NCBI GenBank assembly: GCA_027451365.1
Contig: DAIDJN010000041.1
Location: 89,679 to 153,678 of the forward strand
Source of the DNA: Phycisphaerales bacterium
GTDB lineage: Bacteria > Planctomycetota > Phycisphaerae > WQYP01
Length of the DNA: 64,000 nucleotides
Direction: 5' to 3'
Below, piece by piece: positions 2,358 through 59,785 of the stretch; position 1 is the stretch's first letter; every line of letters begins with the position of its first letter. Both the position numbers and the translations under genes were made by a program. The notes beneath the pieces were generated by a model, which made no database searches, was not told where the DNA came from, and worked only from the letters and a program-made list of their open reading frames with translations.

Positions 2358-2415
2358 CCCGTCGCGGAAATCCCGCTTGATCCCGCGGCCATCCATAAAT
2401 TGAAAGGTCTGCACT

Positions 2416-2952
2416 ATGAAGTCACTTTTTAGCGTCAACAAACTTGTGTTCGCGCCGACGGCGGCATTTATGCTGCTGCTCGCCGGCTGTTCCCACGGCC
2501 CAATTGACCGCAACATGAGTCTTATGCTCGGAAAAAGTCTGCGGGCCAATCAGCAATCCACCAGCACCATTGCGGTGGATCTGGTCGGCGTGAATGCCAC
2601 CGATTACCAGCGCTGGTTCAACTATTCCATGACCGCCTATTTCACCGCGGGCGACCTTTTACGCGCGGGGGCTGACAAAATTACGCTTAATTTCACCCCT
2701 GGATCGGCTGCCACTATTGTGCTTTCCAAGGATAATCCGGTCTGGAAACAGTGGAGAGCTGATGGAGACACTTATATTTTTGTGCTGGCCCAGTTGCCCG
2801 GTATCCGACAGGATATGCCCGGCCCGCAGGACCCTCGCCGCCTGATTCTGCCACTGAAAAAATCCCGCTGGCCGGATTCCGCCAATCCAATCCGAATTTT
2901 GATAAAAAACAGCGGCGTGGTGTGTGAAACCCCGCCAAAATCCAAGAATTAA
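2416..2952 (+). CDS. Lipoprotein (178 aa)
   Basis: N-terminal signal peptide ending in the lipobox LLAGC|S (MKSLFSVNKLVFAPTAAFMLLLAGCSHG). Confidence 0.65.
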   Translation: MKSLFSVNKLVFAPTAAFMLLLAGCSHGPIDRNMSLMLGKSLRANQQSTSTIAVDLVGVNATDYQRWFNYSMTAYFTAGDLLRAGADKITLNFTPGSAATIVLSKDNPVWKQWRADGDTYIFVLAQLPGIRQDMPGPQDPRRLILPLKKSRWPDSANPIRILIKNSGVVCETPPKSKN

Positions 2953-3002
2953 CCCTCAAAGAACGTAACGGCGCTTCATCGCGCCGGGGCGGGAATGACC
3001 TG

Positions 3003-6000: not shown

Positions 6001-7310
6001 GGGCGCAATTGAATATTCTGGTGCGGCAGTTTGCCGCAGGGGCCCAAGGCATTACCACGCCGGCCGGGGCCAGGGCTGCCGCCGCGCACATGCAGGAGGT
6101 GCTAACGGGCGCTTTTTCCAGACCCGGCTGGGCGAAACTTTCATCCAGTCCGCGATTGATCCAATTTCAGGAGGCCCTCGAAGGCATCTTAAAGGCGAAT
6201 CCGGCGCAAGCCCGCCAGCCGGCCGGGCCGGCTCTTGCCGGATGGAAACAGCAGAAACTTCCCAACCATGCCCGTCTGTTTACCAGTCCGTCCGGCCACC
6301 GGAAGTTGACCTTTGTTTTGCTGACGCCACCAGGACATAAACGATTTTATTTATGTACCACAGAACTAAGCGTGGGAATATTTCTTTCGGTGTTGAATTC
6401 CAGTTCCAGTTTAATCCATCGGCCATCCAATTCATTTTATAATCTGATCAAGCCGAACGGCAATTATTTCGGTCCGCATACCTGGGTATACCATCAAAGC
6501 GTCGGACAGGTTGAAATGGCCAAGTCCTGGTTTACGAACACCAATCAGATTTACAACGCGCCGCGCTATAGTTCGGCGCTGCAAGCCGCCGATGGCAAGC
6601 GTTTAAGCCCCGCCGCCGGTGGTCCGCCCCGGTCTGACGATCCGGTTAATTATCTGCCGCCGCAGGCGGCGGTTTATGTCGCGGCGCTGCTCGGTTGTCG
6701 ATTGCCAACGTCCGCTGAATGGCGGTATGCGTGGCGGGAAAAAGGCTCTGGCTCCCGGCCGCATCTGGCCGGCAAAACATTGGCCGGTTATGTGCAGTAT
6801 CTTAAACGTGTCAATTCATCGAAGGATGCCCGATTGCCCACTCCCCGTTACTGGGACCTTTATAATTATTCCGCCCCGGACCTGGCCGCATCGCTTCACT
6901 CATACGGTCCTTCGGCCAACCCGATTCTCTGGTTTGAACCGGTCAGCGGCGCGGCCCGGTCGCCTGCGTTTATACATTTGACCGGCAATGTGGCTGAATG
7001 GGTGTTTGACGATACCCAGGCATATTCCAAAGCGTTCAAGGGCTGGATCAAAACGCCCAAAGCCCTCAACAGCGGTGCTGTTCAGGCACTTTTCACACCT
7101 GCCGCTCTCAAAATGGTTTATGTGATTGGCGGGTCATGCCTTTCACCGCTGGGAAAAACCGCGCCGGACAAGCCGATCCCGATTAACTGGCACCTGCGGC
7201 GGACGCGAAGAGGCTTCGCGGATGTCGGCATGCGGCTGGCTTATCAACCGCGGGTGCTTACCCCGCAGGAACGCCTGGCGCAGCTGATTGGCGGCGATTG
7301 GTATTTCTAA
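3003..7310 (+). CDS. Large membrane-anchored protein: N-terminal degenerate Ser/Thr protein-kinase-like (pseudokinase) domain, one TM helix, long helical middle region, C-terminal FGE-sulfatase (SUMF1/formylglycine-generating-enzyme-like) domain
   Basis: Kinase catalytic-loop-like 'HGNLRAENIF' with the catalytic Asp replaced by Asn and no DFG motif. Subdomain IX-like 'SDDLAQLGRIICELV'. TM segment 'GIGITAALMLIAAVVAGYIHH'. C-terminal FGE motifs 'LPTSAEWRYAW' and 'HLTGNVAEWVFDD'. GTG start at 3003. Confidence 0.7.
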   Translation: MPNFGSYQTDRVTGRRADGSLHTLPDPSQCLLAFEPPADLLSPVRLHAAQSNFIARFDLQRTVAEGSTRWAKVFDLEPLEPSGAFCVMERLDWPLVRLIRLRVAPSPADLYRLVTEVLEALHDAQNLVGRSHGNLRAENIFASSGTLAEARIVLVAPRASVFNSTKAASDDLAQLGRIICELVASRRWTPTTPLDPGMAEFRQLGAIGRRWTEFCRFLLNTDIHADQRSIFSALTMAAKLKPRKSRAPMGIGITAALMLIAAVVAGYIHHRRTLEEMSRFNGAYSAYNTAWHGWFKAFTQNKKLLASVPEFSQVSAALKGGIVLSPNNILHEFTGLLSPAQIQKDLASHPHEAQRLGLAVVLLMRTERILGNIHGKLIHQQNQWNSRGWRRASADLYARGAAPVLPDQSMVPFLRLHSAAWAVNPDLRKLQLTPDGVSAAQWFRQIAAAGQVSGIWSQLSPVLKSFAADSHRSVASFDPYASRYLASASTPDILLMRQRQLLRVARRQATALARYGGSIRWDLVAALPPRNMQLPPDKYFPNLADYRVLAGNDNAYLRLKPQFTADAALVRSGIAHAMRLPKPPTVNYLAGLRVAERNFSRLSDHNLWIWKNRAILDKQAQSAIQRVQNLHQSVTAFINSQINVRKWVAQLLGLHLASQNYPVNPNALVISTIPAINAAYLAKVRRILFAPAPPPAMALEANVQSYNLLVSSLRPRRWRIPILTARITAVRNALTHILRKDFPAGLSDSAAQLSRPWNQQLLQAAILPARASAVRQAMRTLHWNDLTPQIQSSAVQSWLSRHKAFESLVINFNRIQDALNECRLLNASLPGGGSIARLYAQARANIWWTNAATARALAPQIALLRRLEQIHSAAIPALSVAWNRIIAAHPVQPLLIRAIWQRLGLVAPQPTANLMNLEHSLPDRLKAAIAADSQISAARKAALQHLLADQYRLRWQQRMNAAVGASQVNRTLVAAADYQITLSKAPGLTEFSTLSELRPRAQLNILVRQFAAGAQGITTPAGARAAAAHMQEVLTGAFSRPGWAKLSSSPRLIQFQEALEGILKANPAQARQPAGPALAGWKQQKLPNHARLFTSPSGHRKLTFVLLTPPGHKRFYLCTTELSVGIFLSVLNSSSSLIHRPSNSFYNLIKPNGNYFGPHTWVYHQSVGQVEMAKSWFTNTNQIYNAPRYSSALQAADGKRLSPAAGGPPRSDDPVNYLPPQAAVYVAALLGCRLPTSAEWRYAWREKGSGSRPHLAGKTLAGYVQYLKRVNSSKDARLPTPRYWDLYNYSAPDLAASLHSYGPSANPILWFEPVSGAARSPAFIHLTGNVAEWVFDDTQAYSKAFKGWIKTPKALNSGAVQALFTPAALKMVYVIGGSCLSPLGKTAPDKPIPINWHLRRTRRGFADVGMRLAYQPRVLTPQERLAQLIGGDWYF

Positions 7311-7894: not shown

Positions 7895-9301
7895 ATGTTA
7901 TTGTCGCTGTCTGAAGATATGCTGGCGAATCCTTACCGAGTGATCGGTTTGCCCGCGGGTGCCGGACAGAATGATATCGACCTTGCCGTGCGGCGGATGC
8001 GAATATGGAAAAGCCCCGCGGACATTCCACCCACCCCATGGGATTTTCCCCAATTCGGTCCTGTTCCCCGCGAAAAGGCGGATTTGGAGCGGGCGGTCGG
8101 ATTGCTGATGAATCCGGCAACGCGGCTGGTGGCGCGAGCCTGGTGGTTTACCGCACTGCCAGGTGAGTTAAATACGGTCGCGGCTAAAACCGCCCCGGCG
8201 GCCGGCGTATCATTGCGTGCCTTGCAGGCCCATGACAAGGCGTTGACGTGTTTATTTGATCTGGCAAAAAAATCGCCGGATGTTTCCCGCAACCATTTAT
8301 CCTGGTGTGCGGCATTGGCCACTTTGGGCGTAAGCCTGCGTGCGGAAGATTATCTGCGCTGGTCGGCAGGCGTTGAGGTGACCGGAGCCGCCGAAGGTTT
8401 TGAAAAGGCCGCCAGTCCACAGGAAATAATGGATATACCCCAGTCATGGGCGTTGGCACTGTTGCCCAAACTGCGCAACTTCTGTCACAACGCGTACGAT
8501 GCCAGCGCGTTTGATCAGTCGGTTGCATTTATCCGTCTGGCCCAACAGACGAGTCGCGACCATCCGGAAGCCATGCATTTGCGGAGCACCATGCTGGAAC
8601 TTATGGAGCGCAATTTGCTAATCAATTGCCCGCGCGTACAGAATTTTATATACCACGGGATTCCATGGAAACGGTGGGAAAAAATTTTTGTTGGGCGAAA
8701 ATCCCGCCAGATATGTCGCCAGGCGGAGCAGGAGATTGAGCAGACGCTTTTACCTTTGTATCGGGCCTTCATCAAGCTTCAGGCACCGGAGTATCACGAC
8801 ACGCGAGCTGTACAAATCGCATTTAACGCGATGGTACGCAATATGGCCGTGGGCTGGTCGCACGTAGGCGCCACTGCCAATGCGCGCCGCTGGGGTGCCT
8901 TATTACAGTCGGAATCGCGACAACCTCTCACCGTGGGACGACGCTTGTTGATGAGTCTGCGGTCAAATCGAGTATCGTGGACAGTGTTAGGTGTCATCAT
9001 CCTGGGCGTTGCATCGAATCTGTTTAATCAATCGCCACGCGACACTTATTTTCCGCCCCGGCCCTATTACAATCCGGCCCTGCCCCATGCGCCGGCTCGT
9101 CAAAACATGCTCTCTGGCAATGCGCCTCAGCCTGCGGTCTCGGATGGCAATAAGGCTGCATTGCCATCTTACATCCGGCCACGCGCCTCACCACCTGACA
9201 TTTATCATCCACCGGTTTACTCTGGCGATACATCCCAATATCACCTGCCGCCAATGGGCGGCTGGGCACCGGCTGGTATATCACGACCTGGTGCCAGATA
9301 A
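7895..9301 (+). CDS. J-domain-like membrane protein with Pro-rich C-terminal tail (468 aa)
   Basis: GGAG RBS 7 nt before the ATG. N-terminus 'NPYRVIGLPAGAGQNDIDLAVRRMRIW' resembles J-domain helices II-III, but the HPD tripeptide is absent. TM segment 'VLGVIILGVASNLF' is followed by a proline-rich tail. It ends 32 nt before the Hsp70 paralogue. Confidence 0.55.
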   Translation: MLLSLSEDMLANPYRVIGLPAGAGQNDIDLAVRRMRIWKSPADIPPTPWDFPQFGPVPREKADLERAVGLLMNPATRLVARAWWFTALPGELNTVAAKTAPAAGVSLRALQAHDKALTCLFDLAKKSPDVSRNHLSWCAALATLGVSLRAEDYLRWSAGVEVTGAAEGFEKAASPQEIMDIPQSWALALLPKLRNFCHNAYDASAFDQSVAFIRLAQQTSRDHPEAMHLRSTMLELMERNLLINCPRVQNFIYHGIPWKRWEKIFVGRKSRQICRQAEQEIEQTLLPLYRAFIKLQAPEYHDTRAVQIAFNAMVRNMAVGWSHVGATANARRWGALLQSESRQPLTVGRRLLMSLRSNRVSWTVLGVIILGVASNLFNQSPRDTYFPPRPYYNPALPHAPARQNMLSGNAPQPAVSDGNKAALPSYIRPRASPPDIYHPPVYSGDTSQYHLPPMGGWAPAGISRPGAR

Positions 9302-9333
9302 TCACCATCGGATTTTTGAAAGGCTGTTCGAAG

Positions 9334-11873
9334 TGAGCGGAAGTGAATATTATTTTGGCATAGACTTAGGCACCACCAATTCCAGTATTTCGCTTTGTCT
9401 GGACGGGCAAGTGCGGGTATTGCCCAACATGGACGGTGATCAAATCACACCTTCGGTGGTCCATGTGGATGAACTTGGCGTTATTCGCATCGGACGTCAG
9501 GCGTATGAATCTTGGGCGGTGGATCCGGCCAATACCCAGGCTGAATTCAAACGTTGGATGGGCTTCTCCGATGAGCTTGCTTTTCCCGCATCCGGGCGCA
9601 GCATTTCCGCGGAGGAACTTTCCGCCGAGGTCCTTAAATCTCTTTTGGCTGATGCCCAGCGGCACACCGGAGTGCGGCCCGAGTCTTCTGTGGTAACCGT
9701 TCCCGCCGCCTTCGGACAGTTGCAATGTGAAGCCACCACCCGTGCCGCCGCCCGTGCGGGACTTAAGATTGCACCACTGCTTCAGGAACCCATTGCCACA
9801 GCGATCGCCTATGGGGCGGATCCAACCGCTGGTGATCAGCGTTGGATGGTGTTTGATCTTGGTGGCGGCACGTTGGATATTGCCATAGTCTCCACGCGCA
9901 ACGGGCGACTGGCGGTGCTGGAACACTGCGGCGATAACCGCCTTGGTGGAAAAGATATGGATCGCGCGATTGCGTCGGATATTTTTATTCCCGCACTTGC
10001 CGGCGGCTTTACACTGCCGGATCAACAAAAGCAGCCAGCGGCCTTTAATCAATTATTTCGCCGGTTGGTGCGGCACGCAGAGATAGCAAAAAAAGTGCTT
10101 TCCACAACCGATTCCGCGAATATTTCCCTGCTTGATCTGGGCGTGGACAAGCAAGGGCGCCCCATGCAGATGTCGCTTACGGTGACACGATCTCAGATGA
10201 CCGCCGCAATTCAGCCACTCCTGGATCGCTGCCTTAGCCTGGCGCAACTGGCACTCACCAAGGCGCGTATGACCGCCAGTGGCCTGACGAGTGTCATTGG
10301 TGTCGGTGGGCCTGCCCGCATGCCCTGCATTCGGGACATGCTGGAGTCCAGCATGGGCATTGCAATGCGCTGCGACCTTGATCCAATGACAGTGGTTTCC
10401 CAGGGTGCGGCCCGATTTGCCGCCGCCAGCGATTGCCTGGGCGCGACTGGATTATCCGAAACGGATCAACCAGCGACCAGTGAAAGTGCTTCCATAAAAG
10501 TTCCTATTTCAATTTCGCATGAACGGTCCAGTGCCACGGTCTTATCGCCGGTAGGTGGCACGGTCCCGTTATCCGCGGGCATTGCAACTATCCGGTTGAA
10601 AAGGCGTGGTGGAAAAGTCGAATGGAACAGCGGCTTGATTCCTATTGTCAGCGGCCAGTTTTCCACCACTTTAAAATTGGATGAAAAAGCGGCCGTCACG
10701 CGGTTTGTTATTGAGGCCTTTGGCAAACAGGGTCAGGCTATTCCCGTTGATCCTTCCGGCTTTTCAGTCGCGTTGGCCATGCCGCTGGCCGCCGCCCCGC
10801 TTCCGCATACCATCGCGGTGGAATTAACCGACGTGCATGGAAATACTGTGTATGAGCCGATTTTTCAACGTGACAGTGCGCTGCCCGCGGAAGTCACCCG
10901 CAGCTATAGGGCGGAGGCGTCGCTGCGGCCCAGTGAGCCGGAAGGTCGTTTGCCGATTAAATTCTGGGAAATAGATGTATCGGAAGATACGTCAGAGCGC
11001 TGGTGGTGCGGCTGTGTGGAAATTTCCGCCACGAATTTAAGCCGTCCTGTTTCCGAAGGTGCGGAAATACAATTGAAAATCCGTATCGATGCATCCCGCA
11101 AGATTCATGTCAATGCCCATATTCCCTCGATTCATCAGACCTTTGCGGAAGATGTCTATCTGCCGGATCCGCCATCGGCAAGTTCTCATTTGCAAACACA
11201 GCTTGATTCCTGTTTTGACCGTTTACGAAGCGCCTGGCAGCGAATCTATTCCTCCGGCAAAGATGATTTGAAACCAACGTTAACCCGGATTCAGGAGGAG
11301 CTTGACGAAATGGCTTTGCAGACCGGATCGGTCATAGGGGCATCGCGCCGCATCGACCCGGATGTATTGTTGCGTCAGGCCGGGCTGCTGCGCGGGATAC
11401 GCATAAAACTGACGCACGTGGAAGAACAGTTGGTTTCAGAAATTGATCATGTGCTGCTGGTTAGAATTCAAGGCATCATGCGATTTACAGAGCAAATATG
11501 CCATGACCACGGCGATGCCGACGAACAAAAGCAATGTGCGGACTTGCGGCGGCGCTTTAACGGCTACAAATCTACCGGAGATTCCCGTGGCGTTCGCTGG
11601 ATTGAAATAGAACTGCGCCAATTGCAAAATCCGATACTCGAACGCATGCCCGAATACTGGACAGAGTGGCTTGAGGCGCTTAATTCGCCGGGGCGGTTTA
11701 ATTTTATTTCGCGACGCGAGGCGGACCAATGGCTGGGCAAAGCCAACGCGGCGGAGAAAGCAGGAGAGCAGACGGAAATGCGCCGGTGTATTCGCGCCTT
11801 ATGGAGCCTTCTACCCGATCGCGATCAGGCGGCACGCAACCGCGATTCGCAAACGGGTTTGCGGGGCGGATAA
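9334..11873 (+). CDS. Atypical Hsp70-family ATPase (846 aa) with non-canonical C-terminal half
   Basis: Hsp70 nucleotide-binding-domain signatures 'YYFGIDLGTTNSSISL' (phosphate-1) and 'VFDLGGGTLDIAIV' (phosphate-2). GTG start at 9334 after AAAGG. The ORF-track start at 8991 is an upstream artefact that overlaps the previous gene. Confidence 0.8.
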
Positions 11874-12332: not shown

Positions 12333-13493
12333 GTGCGGAGGTGCGGTATGGAAATGCGTTGGTGTGTATTTTCCGGTCTGACTTTGGCTGTCTGGGGCGC
12401 TCAACCGACCTTGGCGGTAACTGCAAAGGCAACAACCGCGGGGCCGAGCGATGCGGCATTTTCCAACAATTCCGGCGGAGTGGTCAATGTGGCCGCTTAT
12501 AGCGAAGCCGCGGGAATTATGAATGCCTCGGTTACGCCGTCGGAAACGCTTGGCGGTGCCACAGTTCCAGTGGCAAGTTCTTCTTACGGCGTCGGCATTA
12601 CGAGCCAGGCAATAGCAGTTCCCGGCCCGATGAAAGTAAACCAGTTCGGATATTTGCGGCAAAGCTATACATTTCAGAAGCCCGTTGCCCAGATTAAACC
12701 TGTGAACAAAAGTTTACTGAGTTTCCCCGGCGATCAGGTTTCCATCACCTCGGAAACGGAGGGTTACACCGGTTTTGCGCAGGTCGAAAATGTCACCAAC
12801 CCTTTAACCGGCCAGGTTACTCCCCGTAATGCCGTGATCGCCGAGGCCAGCGTGCCCGATGGTGAGGTTCCTCCGGGTGATGCCGGCGCGCTTGCTGGCG
12901 ATCCGATTTCCATCCCAACAGGTACCTACAATTACAACCCCACAATTAGTTGCTCAATAACCGACAACACTTCCGGCGATGAGGCTGTGGCGCAGACTTA
13001 TGCGGTTGATGCATCCACGTTCACGTCCGATTCGCTGGACAATTTCGGGCTTGACGGCATGCCCCTGTCCCAAACGCTGTGGTATGTCACGGTGGGGGAG
13101 GCGGGGCCAGTGACCAGCGCCGGTTCGCTGGCGAAACTGGAGATTGATTTCGAGCTTAATCCGCTGGCGCTTAAGGAAATTACACTTCCGCAATCGTTTC
13201 TCAATTCCCTGCCGGCCTTTACAACTACCGCCCAGGAAATCGCGGAAATAAATCAGGCCGTCGACAACGCCATCGCCAATGGGATGGCGTTCAGTGGAAA
13301 TCAGGAAACGCTCAACGGATTCGATCCGTTTCCTGTCGGCACTACCTACAGCCCGCTTTCCAATAACCAGGCTTATGGAGACGGAGCCGCCGCCGAAGTG
13401 GCCGCTCCAGTGCCAGCTTCCATCTGGCTGATGGGATTTGGAACTTTGGTTCTGCTGACGCGGAAATCGCAGACTCGTATAAAGTGTTCCTGA
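12333..13493 (+). CDS. Secreted protein with PEP-CTERM-like sorting tail (variant VPAS)
   Basis: Signal peptide. C-terminus 'APVPASIWLMGFGTLVLLTRKSQTRIK' has a PEP-like motif, a hydrophobic helix and a basic cluster. Confidence 0.55.
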   Translation: MRRCGMEMRWCVFSGLTLAVWGAQPTLAVTAKATTAGPSDAAFSNNSGGVVNVAAYSEAAGIMNASVTPSETLGGATVPVASSSYGVGITSQAIAVPGPMKVNQFGYLRQSYTFQKPVAQIKPVNKSLLSFPGDQVSITSETEGYTGFAQVENVTNPLTGQVTPRNAVIAEASVPDGEVPPGDAGALAGDPISIPTGTYNYNPTISCSITDNTSGDEAVAQTYAVDASTFTSDSLDNFGLDGMPLSQTLWYVTVGEAGPVTSAGSLAKLEIDFELNPLALKEITLPQSFLNSLPAFTTTAQEIAEINQAVDNAIANGMAFSGNQETLNGFDPFPVGTTYSPLSNNQAYGDGAAAEVAAPVPASIWLMGFGTLVLLTRKSQTRIKCS

Positions 13494-14121
13494 TATTTGT
13501 ACCGTAGCGGCAGGTCGCCTGTTCCGCGACGGGCGGCCATAAATGCTTGCCATTGCGTTAGTCATTTGTGTTCTGACGGATCGGGGATTATCGCAGGATC
13601 GCCAAGTGTATTCGCTCGCATTATTCCCTTTCGTGGCACGGTATTGGCAATCACTTCTGTTTACATTTGGTTTTCGTTCGTTGCCATAATTGGCGGCTTT
13701 TGATTATTCGCGATTATTATTCTTTGGCCAAATGTTGAAAATGGGTTGCATAAGCGGCCGGTTTTCCAATTGGCCAAAGAATTGGCGATCCCCATAGTTG
13801 AAACTACGAAGCGCCAACAACAATGGTATTTAACTGCGTTTGGCGTTATAAACAACTGCGGGCAAAGCCATCTGTGGGGCCGCAAAGGCATAATACAGGC
13901 CGCGTTTATCAGGCATTGAAGTTCGTTTTGCACTTCGTTGCCACAGGCTGCAAATACCGTAGCCGATAGGTGAAAAGCCTAATGCCAGGATGGCAATATT
14001 CGGAGTCGGCGTCAGGCAGGAATTCGTAGGGCTTTTATCGAGAAAATTCCAATGGCGTGGATCGCTCCAAACTGGAATAATAACCATCATGGAAGCCGGG
14101 AATGCGAGAAGCGGACGGTTT

Positions 14122-14137
14122 TGTGAATAGTTTCACA
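14122..14137. promoter_or_regulatory. CRP/FNR-family binding-site candidate (TGTGA-N6-TCACA) about 80 bp upstream of the cytochrome c operon
   Basis: Exact match 'TGTGAatagttTCACA' inside the extended palindrome TTGTGAAtagtTTCACAA (14121-14138). It sits in an AT-rich 700-bp intergenic region. Confidence 0.5.
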
Positions 14138-14208
14138 ATATCCGCATAAAACCCGGAACTTTCTGTTTTGTCGTTGTGTACGGCAAAGAAGCTGCTTAAG
14201 GAGAAACC

Positions 14209-14685
14209 ATGTTTGGTCGAAGCTGCGTGAAATCATGCCTTCTTGTTCTGGGCATTGCCGCGGTAACCTGTGGTATCACAGGTTCGCTGGAGGCGGCTTA
14301 TCAGATCGCCGCAACGGGGCGTGTGACGGGCATTTTTCATTTTGATTCTTGGCGAGCGCCCGCCAGGGCGAAAAAAATCACCAATCCAATCCCCCTTACT
14401 CCGGCCTCGGTACAGGCCGGCGAAGTGGTGTACACGCAAAATTGTGTCGCATGCCACGGGGCCAATGCACAGGGAGACGGGCCGACTGGGGCGTTTTTAT
14501 CGCCGCACCCGGCCAATTTGACCAAAGCCAGCTTCTGGGCGCAAGGCGAAGGTGCCATTTTCTGGAAAATCAGCCATGGACACAGCCCGATGCCGGAATT
14601 TGCCGATTCATTAAGCCGCAAACAGCGCTGGAATGTCATCAATTATCTGAAGAAAAATTTTGATCCAGCCGGGGCGGGGAAGTAA
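14209..14685 (+). CDS. Class I c-type cytochrome (mono-haem), secreted
   Basis: Signal peptide. Haem-binding motif CVACH (CxxCH). GGAG RBS. Confidence 0.75.
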   Translation: MFGRSCVKSCLLVLGIAAVTCGITGSLEAAYQIAATGRVTGIFHFDSWRAPARAKKITNPIPLTPASVQAGEVVYTQNCVACHGANAQGDGPTGAFLSPHPANLTKASFWAQGEGAIFWKISHGHSPMPEFADSLSRKQRWNVINYLKKNFDPAGAGK

Positions 14686-14728
14686 CCCGTTTTGACTGAA
14701 TGTCCATTTTCCAGGGAAAGGAACCACC

Positions 14729-16093
14729 ATGAGACGTAGTACCCGAGTCGCGATGTGCCTCGCACTGGGACTGGCGGCATTGCCAGTTGCCGGTCTGCGT
14801 GCGGACCCGACCACCCAGCAGAAGTACGATGCCCTGAAAGCTCAGATGGCCGCCATGGCCCGGCAGATGGCTTCCATGCAGAAGCAAATGGCCGCGATGA
14901 AAAAGCAGCAGGCCGCAATGGCCGCTTCCACTCAATCCACCGATCAGAAAGCCATAGATCGATCTGTTCGCAGGCTCTACAAAAAGGTCATGAAGGAAAG
15001 TCAGAAGATTAGCGCTTTGGAACCTGGAAACATTCAGGTGCTCATTGCCGGCGATGTGAATTTTCAGTTTCAGCATCAGCAGGGCCATGCCTCTACCTTT
15101 TACGCCGATTCCAGCCCGATGATTCAAGTTCGTGTGGATAAGAATATTTTTATCAACACCGCGTTCGATTTCTATACCCAGTCCGGCGGTGCCGGCGGCG
15201 TCAATTCCGACATTGGTGCCGCGAACCTGAATTATGAATTAAATGATAATATAACCCTTGGCGGTGGTCTCATCAGCAGCCCCATCGGCGGGATTGTGGG
15301 TATATATAATCCCGCACCGTGGAACAGGTGGGTTGTGGATGGCTCCTTGGAAGACAATCTGCTTCCCCCAAATGAACTCGGCGTCTGGGCTCGAGGCGGT
15401 GTTCCGGCTCCCAACAATCTCGGCTATCTGACTTATTTTCTATTTGCCAGCAACGGGCCGGCATCTACCTCGACCAACGGAACCGCCAATAGCGCCGGTT
15501 CGTACAACTCTTATACTGGACTTAATTACGGCAATTGGAATCCGGCGGCACAAAACGGCAAGGCCATTGGTGGCCGCGTCAGCTATCTGCCCATTCCCAA
15601 TATCGAAGTCGGATATTCTTTTGAATATGCCCGTCCCAGTGCCGATGGCAGTCCGGTTACCATTAACTCGCTGGTACAGGCCGTGGATTTCAACGCCTAT
15701 TATGTCAACAAAAAAATTGACGGGCTGTTCCGCGTACGGGGTGGCTGGACCTGGGATCAGGTCGGTCAAGGCCTGGTCGTGGCCAATGCTTCGGGCGGAT
15801 TCAGCAGTCTTGGCGGCGATTCCAACGGCGGCCAGATCGAATTTGCCTATCAGCCGTCCATGTGCGGTATTAAATATCTCAATCGTGTCATGGCGGCGTT
15901 CCGTTACGACAGGATTGATGGTCCTGTTTCTCAGGCGCTTAGCGGTTCAGACCACGAACAGCGTTACACCTTCGGCCTGGATTACTGGTTGCATTCCAAC
16001 GCGGTTCTCAAATGCGAGTATGAATTTGATAACCTGTCCGGTGGCCAGCACGGTGCTGACGCCGTATTTATGCAGTTTGCGGTTGGTATCTGA
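14729..16093 (+). CDS. Outer-membrane beta-barrel/porin-like protein with N-terminal coiled-coil (454 aa)
   Basis: Signal peptide. Met/Gln/Ala-rich coiled-coil stretch (QKQMAAMKKQQAAMAAS). Then Gly/Asn/Tyr/Ser-rich alternating pattern typical of beta-barrels. Located between two cytochrome c genes. Confidence 0.5.
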   Translation: MRRSTRVAMCLALGLAALPVAGLRADPTTQQKYDALKAQMAAMARQMASMQKQMAAMKKQQAAMAASTQSTDQKAIDRSVRRLYKKVMKESQKISALEPGNIQVLIAGDVNFQFQHQQGHASTFYADSSPMIQVRVDKNIFINTAFDFYTQSGGAGGVNSDIGAANLNYELNDNITLGGGLISSPIGGIVGIYNPAPWNRWVVDGSLEDNLLPPNELGVWARGGVPAPNNLGYLTYFLFASNGPASTSTNGTANSAGSYNSYTGLNYGNWNPAAQNGKAIGGRVSYLPIPNIEVGYSFEYARPSADGSPVTINSLVQAVDFNAYYVNKKIDGLFRVRGGWTWDQVGQGLVVANASGGFSSLGGDSNGGQIEFAYQPSMCGIKYLNRVMAAFRYDRIDGPVSQALSGSDHEQRYTFGLDYWLHSNAVLKCEYEFDNLSGGQHGADAVFMQFAVGI

Positions 16094-16132
16094 ATCAGTT
16101 GATTTTGACATGATCAATATTAGGAGTTCATC

Positions 16133-16483
16133 ATGAAGATGTTCCCGGCATTTCATTTCGTAAAGGCCGCCACAATCGGTCTTGCAGTCGCGACCGCGGT
16201 AAGTCTGGCGGGTTGCAGCGGATCTTCACCCAAGCAGACCACCGCCGCCAAAAAACCGTTACCGCCTCACCCTATGTTCACGTTCAAGGATCCGGCTGAC
16301 AATGAATCCGGTGCCCAGATATGGTCGCAAAACTGTATGCGATGCCATCAACTTCGCTCTCCGGCTCAATACACGCCCGCTCAATGGGGTGTCATTGTCC
16401 AGTACATGCGGCTAAAGGCTGGCCTTACCGGTGAACAGGCCAAAAAGGTGCTGGCCTTTTTGCAAAGTGCCAGTGCGCATTAA
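16133..16483 (+). CDS. Lipoprotein c-type cytochrome (116 aa)
   Basis: Lipobox 'SLAGC|SGS'. Haem motif CMRCH (CxxCH). Confidence 0.7.
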   Translation: MKMFPAFHFVKAATIGLAVATAVSLAGCSGSSPKQTTAAKKPLPPHPMFTFKDPADNESGAQIWSQNCMRCHQLRSPAQYTPAQWGVIVQYMRLKAGLTGEQAKKVLAFLQSASAH

Positions 16484-16554
16484 CGCCCGCGTGCTTAAGC
16501 CGTATCCGGTTAGTCAATCCGGAGCTTAAGCATTTGCAAACAGTCTTGCCCTCC

Positions 16555-16604
16555 CGTGGCCGGCTGCGGATTGCAGCTTCCGTGGTCGGCCACGATTTTT
16601 TATT
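16555..16604 (+). terminator. Rho-independent terminator after the cytochrome operon
   Basis: GC-rich stem CGTGGCCG...CGGCCACG followed by ATTTTTTATT. Confidence 0.5.
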
Positions 16605-16744
16605 CCGGCAGACTGGTCTGGCCGGGTGTTCTGCAGTTTTCCGGTGCCTTCGGATAAGCGGCAAAAACCGAGTGTGAAAGCTGAAGCCGCAAAATAAGGT
16701 TTTGGAGATGTTTGTTTTCGAGGGCAATCATGCGCCAGCCATTG

Positions 16745-17254
16745 TTATATTCTTTGATCTGTGTCCAGATCGGACCCGGACCACACCGCTCCGGCTGCCG
16801 ATGCGACGCCGGCTCGCAAAGCTGGATCCATTCTTCTTCCACTGATGATTTCCGGTATCAGTTTGCGGGTCGGCAAATCTGCCAGCGGCGTGCGCCGACC
16901 GTGGCCCGGCCGGTGCGAATGCCGCAGCCGGTTGTATTTAGCGTCATTGGCCGCTCGCACCAGAGCTTTTTCGCCAATGTCGGTCACAGCGACCAGCCGC
17001 CCTTCCATAAGAATGGACGCATAGTCGTCAAGTTGGTCGCTGTAGCTGTCAATTTCAAAACAGACCTGATTATTGACCGAAAGAATGTCCCCTTTACGTC
17101 CGGTCATGGGTACCCGAAGATACAGGCACCCATTTACAAAACAGAACGGAAGTGGAATGGCGTATGGCCGGCCATCGGGATGCGCCAAGGCCAGCCTGCC
17201 GATAAGGGTGTTATTCAGCATGTCGGCGATCTGGTCGTGACTCATGGGAATCAT
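16745..17254 (-). CDS. Pyridoxamine 5'-phosphate oxidase-like (PNPOx/FMN-binding split-barrel) family protein
   Basis: 169 aa. Pattern 'LIGRLALAHPDGRPYAIPLPFCFVNGCLYLRVPMTGRKGDIL...VCFEID' is typical of the PNPOx-like fold. Divergent from the radical-SAM pair. Confidence 0.65.
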   Translation of the reverse strand: MIPMSHDQIADMLNNTLIGRLALAHPDGRPYAIPLPFCFVNGCLYLRVPMTGRKGDILSVNNQVCFEIDSYSDQLDDYASILMEGRLVAVTDIGEKALVRAANDAKYNRLRHSHRPGHGRRTPLADLPTRKLIPEIISGRRMDPALRAGVASAAGAVWSGSDLDTDQRI

Positions 17255-17357
17255 AAAATTTTATCCCTTAAAAATTTTGTCTGGAAGCAGAATGCGAGTT
17301 TAGAATCCGGCGCAGCCGGTGTCAATGCCGCCACGTGGAGTCCGCAGGAGTCGCATC

Positions 17358-18485
17358 ATGGTAATGCTTAAAACGGATCGCACGACAATCAGCCCCGGCG
17401 GCCTGAATTATAGCTCCGCCGATTTTGCCCACTCACCGCTGGTGGTATTTTATGAGGTCACCCGAGCCTGCAATCTACTTTGCCGCCATTGTCGCGCCGA
17501 AGCTCAGCCACACCGGCATCCGGAGGAACTTGCGCCCGCCGCATCGTTGCGGTTGCTTGATGCGCTGGCCACGTTTTCCAAGCCGCCGCTGGTGGTGCTT
17601 ACGGGCGGTGACCCGATCAAGCGTGCTGATATATTTGATATTGTGACCCATGGTGTTTCCCTTGGCCTGAAAATGGCCATGACGCCCTCCGCCACCAAGC
17701 TGGTCACGACCGATGCGGTGGGCCGTCTGAAGGTCGCGGGACTGCACCGTCTGGCTGTAAGCCTGGATGGTGCCGATGCGGCGCGTCATGACGATTTCCG
17801 CCGTGTGCCGGGCAGCTTTGCCCGCACACTGGAGATTATGAATGATGCCCGCAGTTGCGGTCTTTCCATGCAGATCAACACTACCATCACGCGGCACAAT
17901 GTGGATCAGATTGATGAAATGGCCGATCTGTTGGACGGCTTTGGCATCGCGCTCTGGTCGGTATTTTTTTTAGTTCCCACGGGCCGGGCGGATATCAGTC
18001 AGCGCATCGCCCCTGAACAATATGAACAGGTATTTGAAAAGTTGCATAATTTTGCGGGCCGGCATCCCTACGCCGTCAAAACCACTGAAGCGCCCCATTA
18101 TCGCCGCTTTGTGCTTGAAAAGCAGCGGCTGGGCGGCACTTCCGCGCCTGGTGGTCAGGGGCTGGCGGCCAATATCGTCGGCACAAATGACGGCAAAGGT
18201 GTCATGTTCATCAGCCACCTCGGTCAAATATTCCCCACCGGCTTTCTGCCCATTGAATGCGGCCGCTTCCCGGCACATTCCCCCGTGGACGTTTACCGGA
18301 ATTCTCCCTTGTTCAAGGACCTGCGCAACCCCAATAAACTGCAGGGCAAATGCGGCTTCTGCCAATACCGCGATATTTGTGGCGGCAGCCGCGCCCGTGC
18401 CTTTGGGGTTACCGGCAATCCGCTTGCCGCCGAGCCAGACTGTGTGTACGTTTCGCCAAACGCGCCATCTCTAAGGAGTGTTTAA
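17358..18485 (+). CDS. Radical SAM enzyme with C-terminal SPASM domain (AhbC/AhbD/NirJ family)
   Basis: CxxxCxxC 'CNLLCRHC' near the N-terminus. Cys-rich SPASM 'CGFCQYRDICGG' at the C-terminus. AGGAG RBS before the ATG at 17358. Confidence 0.8.
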   Translation: MVMLKTDRTTISPGGLNYSSADFAHSPLVVFYEVTRACNLLCRHCRAEAQPHRHPEELAPAASLRLLDALATFSKPPLVVLTGGDPIKRADIFDIVTHGVSLGLKMAMTPSATKLVTTDAVGRLKVAGLHRLAVSLDGADAARHDDFRRVPGSFARTLEIMNDARSCGLSMQINTTITRHNVDQIDEMADLLDGFGIALWSVFFLVPTGRADISQRIAPEQYEQVFEKLHNFAGRHPYAVKTTEAPHYRRFVLEKQRLGGTSAPGGQGLAANIVGTNDGKGVMFISHLGQIFPTGFLPIECGRFPAHSPVDVYRNSPLFKDLRNPNKLQGKCGFCQYRDICGGSRARAFGVTGNPLAAEPDCVYVSPNAPSLRSV

Positions 18486-18486
18486 T

Positions 18487-19696
18487 TATGCTTAGTGTAA
18501 CCAACCTGCTTTGTGATTTCGATGGCGGCAATGAACGTCTGCGGTATGGTCACCGCAATTCCGTCGGCGAAAGTCAGGAGGTGCCGCGGCCTGTGGTGGT
18601 CTGGGCCCTTACCAAAGCCTGTAATCTGCGATGTGTCCATTGTTACGCCTCGGCCAATGCGCGGCCCGCGCCCAATGAACTCACCCTGACGGAAGGCTTA
18701 AACCTTCTGGATGATCTGATAAAGTTCAAGGTTCCCGCGGTGCTTTTCAGCGGTGGCGAGCCGCTGGTGCGTCCGGAGGCGCTGGAATTTATCCGCTATG
18801 CCCGTGCTGGCGGCCTGGCATGTACACTTTCCACCAATGGTCTGCTCATAGATGACTCGATGGCGGAGCGTCTGGCTGACTCGGGATTAAAATATATAGG
18901 TATAAGCATGGATGGACTTCGTGAACGGCACGACAAGCTGCGCGGGCACGCGGGTGCCTTTGACGGCGTGCTTCGCGCCATCACTCACTGTCGGGCACGC
19001 GGCATAAAAGTCGGTTTGCGCTTCACAGTGCACAGCCTGAACATGCAGGATTTGGGCGCGGTGTTTGATATATGTGTTCAGTACGACGTGCAGCGGTTGT
19101 GCATTTATCACCTGGCTTACAGTGGCCGTGGCGGCAACATGCAGAAGGTGGATCTTTCCGCTGCGCAAACCCGCCATGTGGTGGATCGAATATTTGCCCG
19201 CAGCAGGGAATTGCACAAGGCCGGCATTCCCCTTGAAGTTTTGACTGTCGACAACCATGCCGACGCCGCTTATTTGCTGCTGCAGTTGGAGCAGACCGAT
19301 CCCCACCGTGCGCAGAAAGCTCGCCAGCGGCTGGTCGGTACCGGTGGCAATCGTTCCGGCTGCAATATCGCGGCCATTGATCCGGTTGGAAATGTGCATT
19401 ACGACCAGTTCAGTTGGCATTACAATTGCGGCAACATTCGAACTGAACCATTCAGCAAAATCTGGTCCGACGCAAAGGACCCGCGTCTGGCAGTGTTGCG
19501 AAACCGCCATACCCATCTTCCAATGCGCTGTCAGGCGTGCAGATTTCTTTCGGTGTGCAATGGAAATTTGCGTACCCGCGCCGAGGCTGCCACCGGCGAT
19601 TGGCTCGGCTTTGATCCGGGCTGCTATTTAACCGATGAAGAAATTTCCCCGCGCCAGCCCCAGGAATGTGCAGCCGTGGCACTGGTGCGGGACTGA
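18487..19696 (+). CDS. Second radical SAM/SPASM enzyme (AhbC/AhbD/NirJ family), translationally coupled
   Basis: 'CNLRCVHC' radical-SAM motif. SPASM 'CQACRFLSVCNG'. GGAG RBS. Start is 1 nt after the upstream stop. Confidence 0.8.
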
Positions 19697-35070: not shown

Positions 35071-36246
35071 TTATGGAGAGGCGTTGTCCGGGGCACGCAT
35101 GTCATCCGGGTTCAGACCCACGCCGCGGCACCATTCCTGGTAGGCCGCGGGGGCAATTTCGCTGGGTTTTATTTCGCTTCGCCCGCCCCAGAACACATTG
35201 GTGTATGCGATTGGAATGCCCGTGGATTCAAGGTGCCGGTCAATGGCCGCCTTGTGGGCCAGGATAAGGTTTTTGTCTTTGCCATGGGCGACTCCCATGA
35301 CGTTGACATTTCCGAATTCCGGTCCGCCTTCACGCCAGTAGGCATGTGTCATTATATGGAAACGTCCCACTTCGCATCCAGCTTCAATTTCCCGTCCGGC
35401 GGGAACCGCCCAGTGAAACAGAGCGTTGTATTGCGTGACCTTGTCGCCGGTGGGAAGCGTTTTGACATGTTCCAGAAATGTGGAAAAGCGGCCAATCACG
35501 CCGAGCGTATGGAGGTCGGCCGCGACTTGAAAAAAATGATCCAATGACATGCCGATTTCAGCGGCGCGCGGCAGCCAGATATTTTGACAAATTTCAGCCG
35601 GCGCAAATTCACGCTTCAATGCCACCAGCACCTGCCATTGTTCATCGGTCAATGTGACCACCGTCGTGGGGATGGCTTCGGCCGGAACGTCCGCTTTGCT
35701 GCCGGGTTCAAGCCCGCGCCGGCGGACATGGCCCACGCCCAGCGCGAACAGCCGTTTGGCCGGCATTAACTTGAAGGAAACCGCGCCGATTCGCTGCTGC
35801 AGGTAACGGCAATGCTTTTCCAGTGAATATCCCTGCGGAACCTTCAGTGTTGTCCAGAGCCGGTATTTTGATCCTGTGGTCTGGCCATCGGTACTGCGAA
35901 TGACCACATGACCGGAAAACGGGTCCTGTTGAAAAAGGTAATCAAAAGCCGCGTTGAGTTTTTCCGCCGGCACTTCCCACGCCACCAGGCAGCCTTCCGC
36001 AAGGCTGGTGGCCAGCAGCGTCTGTCGCACGCGGCGCACCACGCCGCCGCGCAGCATGGCGGTAATGCGCTCGATAACCGTATTGGTTTCCAACCCAGCC
36101 ATGTTGGCGATTGCGCTGATCGGGTCGGTTTGAAAGCCCTGGATTTTGTCCTCTGAAACGGCAAGGATTCGGGCATTGATCGCATCGTGAATGTCGATGG
36201 GAATCTGCGCCTCAGAGGCCGGCGATGGAATGGTTGAACTGGTCAT
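35071..36246 (-). CDS. Candidate siroheme decarboxylase (fused AhbA/AhbB or NirD/NirL-like; tandem Lrp/AsnC-like halves), tentative
   Basis: Two AsnC-type HTH-like halves ('DAINARILAVSEDKIQ...VIERITAMLRGGVVRRV' and 'LTDEQWQVLVALKREF...'). 'YRLWTTL' resembles the NirD/AhbA 'NLWF(V/T)L' block. Start trimmed to the ATG at 36246 to avoid overlap with the next gene. Confidence 0.35.
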   Translation of the reverse strand: MTSSTIPSPASEAQIPIDIHDAINARILAVSEDKIQGFQTDPISAIANMAGLETNTVIERITAMLRGGVVRRVRQTLLATSLAEGCLVAWEVPAEKLNAAFDYLFQQDPFSGHVVIRSTDGQTTGSKYRLWTTLKVPQGYSLEKHCRYLQQRIGAVSFKLMPAKRLFALGVGHVRRRGLEPGSKADVPAEAIPTTVVTLTDEQWQVLVALKREFAPAEICQNIWLPRAAEIGMSLDHFFQVAADLHTLGVIGRFSTFLEHVKTLPTGDKVTQYNALFHWAVPAGREIEAGCEVGRFHIMTHAYWREGGPEFGNVNVMGVAHGKDKNLILAHKAAIDRHLESTGIPIAYTNVFWGGRSEIKPSEIAPAAYQEWCRGVGLNPDDMRAPDNASP

Positions 36247-36292
36247 GGAAGCACCCAAAAAATACCGGCGGCGCGATTGCCGCCATTCTACC

Positions 36293-36835
36293 TTAATAAT
36301 TGGAACCATCATGACGAATATGCACCACGGGGCGGGCGTTGTCGTCATCACACAGGCCGCCCTGTATGGCGGTGCCGATTATCAGCTCATGGTCGGTTTT
36401 GAAATTCACACGCTGGTGCATGTCGCACCATATCCAGGCGCAGGCTTCGGTCAAAATCATTCCGCCGTTGTCCAGTCGGCGCGTTTTAACACCTTCAAAC
36501 GCGGAATCACCGGTCAGGCGCTGTCGGGCATATTTTCGCATCAGGCTTTTATCCCCGGCATGACAGACGTTTAACGCGAATCCACCTGTGTGTTGAATAA
36601 CATCCGCAATTTCGCGATCGCGGTGAATGGCGACCCCAATACAGATCGGCTCGCGGCTGAGCTGCTGAACGAATGAAACCAGCATGGCCGAGGCGTCGGG
36701 TCCGTGGCCGGTGGTGAGAATAAAAATACCACTGGGAATTTTACCAACCGCTCGGAAAAGCGGCAAAATAGGTTCAACGGTGCTGTCAATAATCACTGAA
36801 TACTCCAAAACAGTTCCGCCGCAACAGGCTTCCAA
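36293..36835 (-). CDS. Flavin reductase-like (FMN-binding split-barrel, HpaC/NtaB family) protein
   Basis: 'IFILTTGHGPDASAMLVSFVQQLSREPICIGVAIH' matches the flavin reductase domain pattern. Confidence 0.55.
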   Translation of the reverse strand: MEACCGGTVLEYSVIIDSTVEPILPLFRAVGKIPSGIFILTTGHGPDASAMLVSFVQQLSREPICIGVAIHRDREIADVIQHTGGFALNVCHAGDKSLMRKYARQRLTGDSAFEGVKTRRLDNGGMILTEACAWIWCDMHQRVNFKTDHELIIGTAIQGGLCDDDNARPVVHIRHDGSNY

Positions 36836-45875: not shown

Positions 45876-46586
45876 TTATGGGCGCGGTGGATTGGATTTA
45901 ATCTTATTCGTATCAAGTGTGACCGCGCCATGCCGGGCCAGGGCGCCGCCATCCTGAATTGACGCACTGTTCATTATGATAATATCCGTGGTGGCAAGAA
46001 TGGTGCCTTCAAATGCGCTGTCCGCCCCAAGGGTGGCCGAACTTCCCACCTGCCAGAACACAAAATTCCTTGGCTCAGATCCATTGCCACGGTTAATGGA
46101 AATAACGGCTGATTTGGTGCCGGTGGTCAGAGTTGTCCCGATCTGAAATACAAACTGGGCTTTTTTATTGCCTTGGCAGTCAAGTGTGAGTATCCCGTTG
46201 AGAGTTGCCAACGACGAAAAATAATATACCCCGGGCAGCAGCGTTAACCCGCCCAGGTCCTGGCCGCTTAAATCGTGGGTCGGTTTCATCCCCTGAACCG
46301 CTTTGTAAGCGGCGGTAAGATCAATATGCGCTTTGCGGGCGACATCATCGGCCATTCGCTTGGCATGGGGCGATAAGACAATACCCGGCGGGAAGCCGGT
46401 GATATCCTCGCTGTGACTGGTTCCCACATGGCCTCCATGCACCGCGGTATCGCCGGTATTCGTGACCGCGGTACCGCCCAACACCGCAAAATTGGCGGCG
46501 GAATCTAAAATAAATTGAACCGGCGCGTGCAGCGGAAGCGTGCCCAACGGTGCAACCACCAGCATAACAAGTGTTTTATTTACCAT
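45876..46586 (-). CDS. DUF3494 (ice-binding-protein-like beta-helix) secreted protein
   Basis: AAGGAG RBS. Signal peptide. 'AANFAVLGGTAVTNTGDTAVHGGHVGTS...ITGFPPG' matches the DUF3494/IBP family start. Confidence 0.7.
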   Translation of the reverse strand: MVNKTLVMLVVAPLGTLPLHAPVQFILDSAANFAVLGGTAVTNTGDTAVHGGHVGTSHSEDITGFPPGIVLSPHAKRMADDVARKAHIDLTAAYKAVQGMKPTHDLSGQDLGGLTLLPGVYYFSSLATLNGILTLDCQGNKKAQFVFQIGTTLTTGTKSAVISINRGNGSEPRNFVFWQVGSSATLGADSAFEGTILATTDIIIMNSASIQDGGALARHGAVTLDTNKIKSNPPRP

Positions 46587-57974: not shown

Positions 57975-57994
57975 AGTCTAAATTGTAGCCTATC

Positions 57995-59757: not shown

Positions 59758-59785
59758 AGCCTCACCCATTTAAGGATTTGTCATC

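Follow-up and report, generated by a model that had tools for sequence, protein, structure and literature searches.

Introduction

The redox cycling of iron and other metals is assigned to organisms by means of a few marker genes, namely Cyc2, MtoAB/PioAB and MtrCAB. In the pcc clusters of Geobacter, the genes for a periplasmic cytochrome, a porin-like protein and a lipoprotein cytochrome follow each other in this order. The model for Cyc2 implies a solute that enters the pore and meets a small cytochrome at its periplasmic mouth (PMC8406198), from where the electrons would be handed on to cupredoxins or to soluble cytochromes of the periplasm (PMC8406198; PMC10654088). Here we describe a three-gene operon encoding a secreted class I cytochrome c, a coiled-coil porin and a lipoprotein cytochrome c, each cytochrome with a single haem, which was found in a stretch of 64,000 nucleotides of DNA from a Phycisphaerales bacterium of the Planctomycetota (GenBank assembly GCA_027451365.1, contig DAIDJN010000041.1, positions 89,679 to 153,678). 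This whole stretch, hereafter the window, is identical to a contig of the metagenome-assembled genome (MAG) GCA_021852225.1, and the positions given below are those of the window.

The trio is a real, conserved and self-contained module, sometimes fused, for which there is no family model. A search of the open-access literature retrieved no description of a coiled-coil cytochrome-porin, nor of a comparable system of outer-membrane cytochromes in planctomycetes. As a tentative but plausible reading, we propose that the trio may be an outer-membrane redox module of the Cyc2 working type, split among separate genes and with single haems. An earlier annotation of the locus from its letters alone (the original prediction) had already noted that the two cytochromes and the barrel resemble the porin-cytochrome conduits that carry electrons across the outer membrane, even though those usually have multihaem cytochromes.

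Results

Operon structure and conservation

The operon spans positions 14209-16483 of the forward strand. Gene 1 (14209..14685, +) encodes a secreted class I mono-haem cytochrome c of 158 aa, with a Sec signal peptide and a CVACH motif, and is followed by gene 2 (14729..16093, +), which encodes an outer-membrane protein of 454 aa composed of a signal peptide, a coiled-coil stalk and a beta-barrel, and by gene 3 (16133..16483, +), which encodes a lipoprotein mono-haem cytochrome c of 116 aa with a CMRCH motif. The gaps between genes 1 and 2 and between genes 2 and 3 measure 43 and 39 nt, and an AGGA-type ribosome-binding site precedes each of the genes. A palindromic operator, TTGTGAA-TAGT-TTCACAA, is found upstream of gene 1 (14121..14138), whereas the 3' side is closed by an intrinsic terminator (16555..16604, +) with a 16-bp GC-rich stem, an 8-nt loop and a T-run. 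The hairpin of the terminator (16555-16594) folds with -33.7 kcal/mol (z = -4.65), and none out of 200 shuffled sequences folds equally well.

The 5' side of the operon is occupied by a non-coding gap of ~715 nt (13494-14208), where no gene is called in the MAG annotation. A scan of positions 13400-17400 against Rfam gave no match, which leaves this gap without any known RNA, the operator at its 3' end being the sole part with an explanation.

Relatives of the porin were collected at increasing depth. A word-indexed search gave 45 homologues and a scan of one genome per species gave 194, of which 80 loci were fetched, whereas HMMER, run exhaustively over 1.84 billion cluster representatives, yielded 494 porins at E<=1e-30 and 1280 at E<=1e-10. 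The family would thus extend to ~500 clusters at 50% identity (E<=1e-30) from Planctomycetota and Verrucomicrobiota, including the abundant soil Udaeobacter, with additional members in Methylomirabilota and Acidobacteria. By hosts, it is present in Phycisphaerae, Tepidisphaerales, Chthoniobacterales together with Udaeobacter, and other Verrucomicrobiota (soil ones included), as well as in one Methylomirabilota MAG, one Thermoanaerobaculia MAG (Acidobacteria) and the isolate Planctomycetales bacterium ZRK34. The closest relatives are Planctomycetota and Phycisphaerae MAGs, among them MAG 18 (locus L028) and MAG 19 (L039) of the Cabin Branch acid mine drainage (PMC8357290), and this group is referred to here as the acid-mine clade. 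Both MAGs were reported to contain caa3 or bd oxidases and no Fe(II) oxidation genes, the latter judged by BLAST with Cyc2 (PMC8357290).

Synteny was counted with hidden Markov models of genes 1 and 3 on the six-frame open reading frames (ORFs) of 84 non-redundant loci, taking as denominators the loci with room on the contig. The porin gene is directly followed by gene 3 in 79 of 80 such loci and is either directly preceded by gene 1 or joined with it in a fusion in 67 of 74; the complete trio occurs in 63 of 70. Natural fusions were found in ~15 of the top 150 porin representatives (515-626 aa), where a signal peptide and a cytochrome c of the gene 1 type come first and are joined by a linker rich in Ala and Pro to the coiled coil and then the barrel. 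One of them (P0114) was modelled with AlphaFold, which gave confident structures for the cytochrome (residues 35-140) and the barrel, and a disordered linker (145-184). The two fusions whose contigs were examined carry a gene-3-type lipoprotein cytochrome directly 3', and one of these pairs stands alone among unrelated genes. Such Rosetta-stone fusions between cytochrome and porin strongly indicate that the porin is the place where the soluble cytochrome acts. Taken together, the three-gene anatomy of the original prediction (a periplasmic mono-haem cytochrome, a coiled-coil and barrel protein and a lipoprotein mono-haem cytochrome) holds in full and at the same positions, its terminator is real, and its idea that the cytochromes and the porin form one unit is strongly reinforced by the near-universal synteny and the natural fusions.

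Two porin paralogues were detected in the same Verrucomicrobia MAG (AV111). One of them (L074) is part of a full trio, while the other (L080) has neither cytochrome and is the sole locus with room that lacks gene 3.

A coiled-coil porin without a family model

The protein of gene 2 comprises a signal peptide (residues 1-25), a Met/Ala/Gln-rich coiled coil (~27-96; nt ~14807-15016) and a barrel (~103-453; nt ~15035-16087). It gave no match in Pfam or NCBIfam, including MtrB_PioB, Porin_1/4, Porin_O_P and OprB, so it falls outside the curated porin families of both databases, and it contains no SLH domain. A profile search of PDB sequences detected OmpM alone, as a weak match (E 0.003-0.007) that covers the coiled coil and the first strands. 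The AlphaFold2 model (33 homologues; mean predicted local distance difference test, pLDDT, 73.7) shows a long helix (residues 27-96) followed by a beta-barrel (103-453), and a Foldseek comparison of this model with the PDB retrieved OmpU, OmpT, OmpC, OmpK36 and OmpF, together with the tether porin OmpM1, all at E ~1e-11 to 1e-10 (~1e-10 for the OmpM1 type). These targets are 16-strand trimeric porins, matched with a target TM (template modelling) score of ~0.6-0.66. The barrel fold of the middle protein, on which the earlier proposal had been made to depend, is therefore upheld by AlphaFold2 and Foldseek alike.

The model of the fused relative P0114 (pLDDT 75.1) offers a clean view of the 16 strands, with which the model of gene 2 is consistent, and also reveals, after strand 5 and before strand 6, a loop of ~30 residues that contains two short helices. 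In the porins of the OmpF type, this is the position of the constriction loop L3. The corresponding L3-like loop of gene 2 (residues ~184-214) is the most conserved motif of the family and is rich in acidic residues, with the form PWNRW..D..L..P in the acid-mine clade and PPWINKLPD.PL elsewhere. Gene 2 has in this way the features of a general porin, namely a barrel of 16 strands and a loop that folds inwards between the fifth and the sixth of them, and none of the 33 aligned members has a CxxCH motif in the porin. From these models, gene 2 would form a narrow, selective and probably cation-preferring solute channel rather than an empty sheath. A porin of the OprP type, specific for phosphate, was rejected as a candidate, as the likeness is that of the general fold alone, with no link in sequence.

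The coiled-coil stalk of the acid-mine clade is unusually rich in Met, with repeated MxxM (QMAAMARQMASMQKQMAAMKK) that are reminiscent of Cu(I)-binding Met motifs. This feature is not conserved in distant relatives.

Two single-haem cytochromes

Gene 1 is a class I c-type cytochrome: it has a single CxxCH (CVACH), a distal Met, and Pfam matches to Cytochrome_CBB3 (1.4e-13) and Cytochrom_C (6.6e-11), with 51.4 bits for a cut-off of 27. Its closest solved relative is the cytochrome c552 of Thioalkalivibrio paradoxus (7o9u; 2e-17), a soluble periplasmic protein (PMC9456337), and it also matches the ActE subunits of alternative complex III (ACIII) (6lod, 6f0k and 6btm; 2e-7 to 4e-4). Gene 1 would be a soluble or tetherable electron shuttle. 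One sub-clade contains a second cytochrome c gene of the gene 1 type, which is transcribed divergently and lies ~440 nt upstream of the operon (L005, 6517-6951 of the minus strand; also L021, L022 and L036).

Gene 3 is a borderline cytochrome, with a Pfam score of 20.9 bits for a cut-off of 21.3 and weak matches to Cytochrom_C, c551, SorB and cytochrome cy. The protein carries a lipobox (LAG↓C28) and one CMRCH. Since a word-indexed search reached its close relatives alone, the distant members were recovered through synteny. Among 30 aligned orthologues, the CxxCH, two Trp residues and the Met and Arg of an HMR motif are invariant, a pattern consistent with a haem ligated by His and Met. The lipobox Cys is aligned in 52 of 84 orthologues, where it is separated from the CxxCH by 31-44 residues (n=52). 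The protein has a flexible tether of 20-35 residues rich in Ala, Pro, Ser, Thr and Lys, followed by a folded haem domain of ~57-60 residues, a size close to that of the cytochrome 'plug' of Cyc2 (modelled as ~20 x 20 x 10 Å; PMC8406198). However, the motifs that define Cyc2, PXFAR[Q/K][T/Y] upstream of the CXXCH and PXL four residues downstream (PMC8406198), are absent from both gene 1 (..VVYTQNCVACHGANAQG..) and gene 3 (..AQIWSQNCMRCHQLRSPAQ..), and no sequence similarity between the trio and Cyc2 was detected.

A conserved operator

The operator contains TGTGAATAGTTTCACA at positions 14122-14137, which is an exact TGTGA-N6-TCACA inside the full palindrome TTGTGAA-N4-TTCACAA. Its centre is located 79.5 nt 5' of the ATG of gene 1 (14209). 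The exact motif occurs a single time in the 64 kb window, where shuffled sequences would lead us to expect 0.01 (1 of 100 shuffles had one), whereas 1.25 palindromes per window are expected when one mismatch is allowed, a number that is not significant by that test alone. Among 13 gene-1-bearing lineages of the acid-mine clade, whose porins are 43-100% identical, the sequence T(T/C)GTGAA-N4-TTCAC(A/G)A was found 67-92 nt upstream of gene 1 in 10. Exact or near-exact operators occur in the window, L002/L037, L005 and its relatives, L025 (two copies) and L039-41 (with a porin 43% identical), and a symmetric variant, TCGTGAAA.GTTTCACGA, is present at the same position in five more lineages (L016, L018, L021, L022 and L036). 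When the operator regions are aligned, T(T/C)GTGAA-N4-TTCAC(A/G)A is the only conserved element between unrelated flanks, and it varies symmetrically (T/A to C/G), so that the dyad is kept across lineages. This is a clear phylogenetic footprint, as expected for the site of a dimeric DNA-binding protein.

The original prediction had placed an exact TGTGA-N6-TCACA palindrome about 80 bp before the first start codon and had staked its relevance on conservation upstream of orthologous operons, and both points are borne out. Its proposal of control by a regulator of the CRP/FNR type stands in part. The site fits the CRP consensus, having the same half-site and spacing as the TGTGA-N6-TCACA of Escherichia coli CRP, but it departs from the FNR box, TTGAT-N4-ATCAA, and thus the site itself does not imply control by oxygen or redox state. 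CRP-like sites have also been reported for HcpR and similar regulators of the CRP/FNR superfamily. In the acid-mine Phycisphaerae, a dimeric regulator of this superfamily would bind T(T/C)GTGAA-N4-TTCAC(A/G)A and switch the operon. A gene for such a regulator, which the original prediction had advised to look for, was found neither in the 64 kb window nor beside the operon in related loci with phmmer and Pfam. The phmmer queries were the E. coli CRP and FNR sequences, which were run against all ORFs of the window and of 95 loci and gave their sole weak matches in L095, while Pfam assigned the 30 largest other ORFs of the window to TetR, a sigma-54 activator or GGDEF among others, with no Crp-type protein. 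An assignment to class I or class II promoters was dropped, as no consistent distance separates the operator from the candidate -10-like hexamers of the window, L002 and L005.

Two more copies of the operator (845-860 and 943-958 of L025) precede the gene of a different coiled-coil porin (1055-2761), whose barrel ends in ..VSFGF and which is followed by two YceI-like genes. From these copies, the regulon of the operator may be oriented to the envelope and its outer-membrane proteins.

Genomic context in other lineages

The neighbours of the trio change with the lineage. In Tepidisphaerales and Phycisphaerales, the trio forms the tail of an operon with a Rieske protein and a cytochrome b/c fusion (L044, L051, L052 and L089), an order that is inverted in L059. 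In L012, L014, L043, L046, L079 and L085, it comes either after or before a periplasmic 4Fe-4S protein (Fer4_11), a membrane subunit of the NrfD type and a conserved anchored protein of ~200 residues, where the best NCBIfam matches of the 4Fe-4S and NrfD-type neighbours are DsrO/DsrP and QrcC/QrcD. Finally, in ~20 Verrucomicrobia loci, a cupredoxin of the plastocyanin/azurin type, fused to FG-GAP or other repeats, lies directly upstream of gene 1. Those loci often encode, in addition, another porin-like protein, a ferritin-like protein, an MMPL transporter and a two-component pair of the OmpR type, the pair having its best NCBIfam match, below the cut-off, in the heavy-metal CopR/CopS subfamily. 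Genes for terminal oxidases did not adjoin the trio in any locus inspected. Through its Rieske/cytochrome b, DsrOP/Qrc-like and cupredoxin neighbours, the trio is connected with the quinone pool and with high-potential carriers of the periplasm. These neighbours leave the direction of the electron flow unfixed, since Rieske/cytochrome b complexes usually oxidise quinol and those of the Qrc/DsrOP type are thought to reduce quinone. Moreover, the bc1 complex of Acidithiobacillus runs in reverse during iron oxidation.

Other genes of the window

Downstream of the operon there is a PNPOx-like gene (Pyridox_ox_2; 16745..17254, -; 169 aa; Pfam 2.9e-13), which keeps this position in L001-L007, followed by two genes of the radical SAM/SPASM type. 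The first one is AhbD-like (17319..18485, +; MAG start at 17358) and scores 433 bits with TIGR04053 (cut-off 395) and 323 with AhbD (cut-off 500). The second is NirJ1/AhbC-like (18488..19696, + as called in the MAG, L001, within an ORF that begins at 18350), with 444 bits for NirJ1 and 423 for AhbC, both below their cut-offs. The radical SAM genes are linked to the trio in 18 loci, and the linkage survives a rearrangement in L009. Away from them, the window encodes a fused AhbA/AhbB-like siroheme decarboxylase (35071..36351, -; Pfam AsnC_trans_reg2; AhbB 1.4e-17 and AhbA 2.8e-12, below the cut-offs), which supports a role of the radical SAM pair in siroheme-dependent haem synthesis. These similarities suggest that this acidophilic Phycisphaerae lineage makes its haem through the siroheme-dependent route, and the simplest reading would be that haem synthesis by this route is kept beside an operon of haem proteins. 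A role of the radical SAM pair in the modification of haem is a conceivable alternative.

 Three consecutive ORFs (414-7310, +; 647, 178 and 1435 aa) match no Pfam family at E<=1e-4. They are followed at 7895-11873 (+) by an unannotated protein of 468 aa and a large HSP70/DnaK-like ATPase (960 aa as an ORF, 846 aa in the MAG), which has no match to a normal substrate-binding region. Tandem genes for secreted Ice_binding-like proteins (PF11999) occur at 45876-47839 (-), and also in L014/L015; this domain family flanks the trio in the distant locus L014, probably by coincidence. A type II restriction-modification pair with a BglII-like endonuclease and an N6/N4 DNA methylase is encoded at 55507-57098 (-), next to a TetR regulator and an RND efflux operon (57282-63982) with an OEP protein, an HlyD-type adaptor and a pump of 1026 aa.

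Discussion

The most plausible role for the trio, which we put forward tentatively, is that of an outer-membrane redox module working as Cyc2 does. The lipoprotein cytochrome encoded by gene 3 would be held at the periplasmic mouth of the barrel, where a small redox-active solute, after passing the acidic constriction of the pore, would exchange an electron with its haem; a cytochrome threaded into the pore or exposed at the surface is also conceivable. The cytochrome of gene 1, acting either free or, similarly to cytochrome cy, tethered to the stalk, would shuttle the electron between the outer membrane and the quinol/quinone complexes or oxidases of the inner membrane. The flow could go either way, resulting in the oxidation of an external donor or in the reduction of an external acceptor. 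For the acid-mine clade, the best guess of the solute would be Fe2+/Fe3+. Iron is favoured there by the habitat, by the acidic constriction and by the rus operon, which offers a parallel for the combination of a cupredoxin, a cytochrome and a porin, and yet as the actual substrate iron must be considered doubtful. Several points weigh against this picture. The assignment of the substrate is a guess, and the family also occurs in genomes from soil, peat, lakes and the deep sea, which are not obviously driven by iron. Cytochromes of class I with His/Met ligands and neighbours of the bc/ACIII type are equally typical of ordinary aerobic chains. Moreover, there is a clade of close relatives without gene 1 (L008, L024, L026, L029 and L035), the linkage of the trio to haem-synthesis genes is limited to one clade, and the absence of the Cyc2 motifs means that any likeness to Cyc2 would be convergent.

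The two cytochromes could be explained as ordinary respiratory carriers between a complex of the bc/ACIII type and a terminal oxidase, with a housekeeping or nutrient porin that happens to be co-transcribed. The resemblance of gene 1 to the soluble c552 and to ActE, the weak matches of gene 3 to lipoprotein c551, SorB and cytochrome cy, the complex-III-type modules in the neighbourhood, and the caa3 and bd oxidases of the acid-mine MAGs all agree with this idea. A chance operon, however, would not hold the adjacency of porin and gene 3 at 79 of 80 loci across phyla, nor would it account for the repeated fusions of cytochrome and porin, the fused two-gene versions that stand alone, or the lack of terminal oxidase genes adjoining the trio in the loci inspected, so that this explanation seems unlikely. 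Metal defence or homeostasis, where Cu(I), Fe(II) or Mn(II) admitted by the pore would be oxidised at the envelope by the cytochromes (with the cupredoxins in Verrucomicrobia) in order to limit the toxicity of the metal or to aid its uptake and not for energy conservation, fits the cupredoxin genes directly upstream, the OmpR-type regulator and kinase of Verrucomicrobia loci that are closest, below cut-off, to CopR/CopS, the MMPL/RND and Tat-type ferritin-like neighbours, the Met-rich stalk with its MxxM repeats in the acid-mine clade and the metal-rich habitat. But the heavy-metal assignments are below the curated cut-offs, the planctomycete versions sit in operons of quinone complexes and not in resistance clusters, neither a multicopper oxidase nor a P-type ATPase is adjacent, and the Met-rich stalk is not conserved beyond one clade, all of which makes such a purpose quite unlikely.

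A structural or regulatory role, with the coiled-coil porin as an outer-membrane tether or as a channel whose permeability would be gated by the redox state of the cytochromes, is improbable. Although the profile and the fold resemble the coiled-coil tether porins of the OmpM1 type, and L025 has the same operator before another coiled-coil porin gene, the protein lacks an SLH or any other wall-binding domain, and its embedding in operons of quinone complexes argues for a flux of electrons. To our knowledge, there is no precedent for porins gated by cytochromes. Even harder to believe is a true haem wire across the outer membrane, like those of MtrCAB or OmaB/OmbB/OmcB (Pcc). The gene order is the same as in the pcc clusters of Geobacter, but each cytochrome has one CxxCH, here and in the orthologues, and two haems cannot bridge the outer membrane; besides, the barrel has 16 strands and an L3-like constriction, as opposed to the 20-26 strands of the Mtr/Pcc sheaths, and matches neither MtrB_PioB nor any other Pfam family.

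With regard to its wider meaning, the trio could represent an unrecognised and independently evolved class of single-haem porin-cytochromes that gives 'ordinary heterotrophs' a means of electron exchange with iron or another metal at the outer membrane, an idea that we regard as somewhat unlikely. If it were true, surveys based on the Cyc2, Mto and Mtr markers would miss the module entirely. Should the trio be a working outer-membrane redox module, it would amount to a third porin-cytochrome architecture, split and single-haem, and would provide a testable marker of electron exchange for the Planctomycetes-Verrucomicrobia-Chlamydiae (PVC) superphylum, including the dominant soil Verrucomicrobia. 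It would also be a natural experiment in how to tether a cytochrome to a porin, through either a stalk fusion or a lipid anchor. In any case, an outer-membrane family of ~450 residues that counts several hundred clusters and has no model in Pfam or NCBIfam deserves a definition even if its substrate turns out to be mundane, and the conserved operator provides a first entry point into how uncultured acidophilic planctomycetes control transcription.

Comparison with known systems

Cyc2/Cyt572, from the iron oxidisers Acidithiobacillus, Mariprofundus and Leptospirillum, is the closest parallel, as it combines a single haem with a 16-strand porin-like barrel and also appears in acid-mine settings. 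However, the cytochrome of Cyc2 is fused directly to the barrel through an N-terminal CXXCH, whereas the module described here keeps the 16-strand barrel apart from its cytochromes, encoded as separate genes and two in number instead of one. Even the fusions found in relatives differ from Cyc2, as they carry a different and larger class I cytochrome (c552/ActE-like) with a long linker and a coiled coil, a stalk that Cyc2 lacks. As to MtrCAB and OmaB/OmbB/OmcB (Pcc), the common ground is the gene cluster itself, with a periplasmic cytochrome, an outer-membrane barrel and a lipoprotein cytochrome, as well as the link to an inner-membrane quinol/quinone module in some loci. Those systems pass electrons along cytochromes with 8-12 haems through sheaths of 20-26 strands, whereas each cytochrome here has one haem and the pore is a constricted barrel of 16 strands, with neither a multihaem chain, nor a large sheath barrel, nor homology to MtrB/PioB or OmbB. 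A passage of electrons across the outer membrane by a conduit of the Geobacter/Shewanella type, to which the original prediction had drawn an analogy, is thus not sustained by the single haem of each cytochrome and by the 16-strand barrel, whose L3-like constriction loop leaves no room for anything to span it.

On the other side, the porin resembles the OmpM1-type porins of diderm Firmicutes (PDB 8bym, 8bys) and to the SLH-porins, with which it shares the coiled-coil stalk and the 16-strand barrel. It differs from them in the lack of SLH and in having the end of the stalk either free or occupied by a cytochrome c, so that its partners are cytochromes and not peptidoglycan. The cytochromes, in turn, recall cytochrome cy and ActE, where a mono-haem domain of class I, held by a flexible tether or a lipid anchor, behaves as a captive shuttle; but whereas those are anchored at the inner membrane and serve bc1/ACIII and the oxidases, here the attachment would be to the stalk of the porin, in the fusions, or through a lipobox encoded beside the porin gene. 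By its motifs and its architecture, the module is outside both the Cyc2 and the Mtr/Pcc families, and would be a convergent or independent design.

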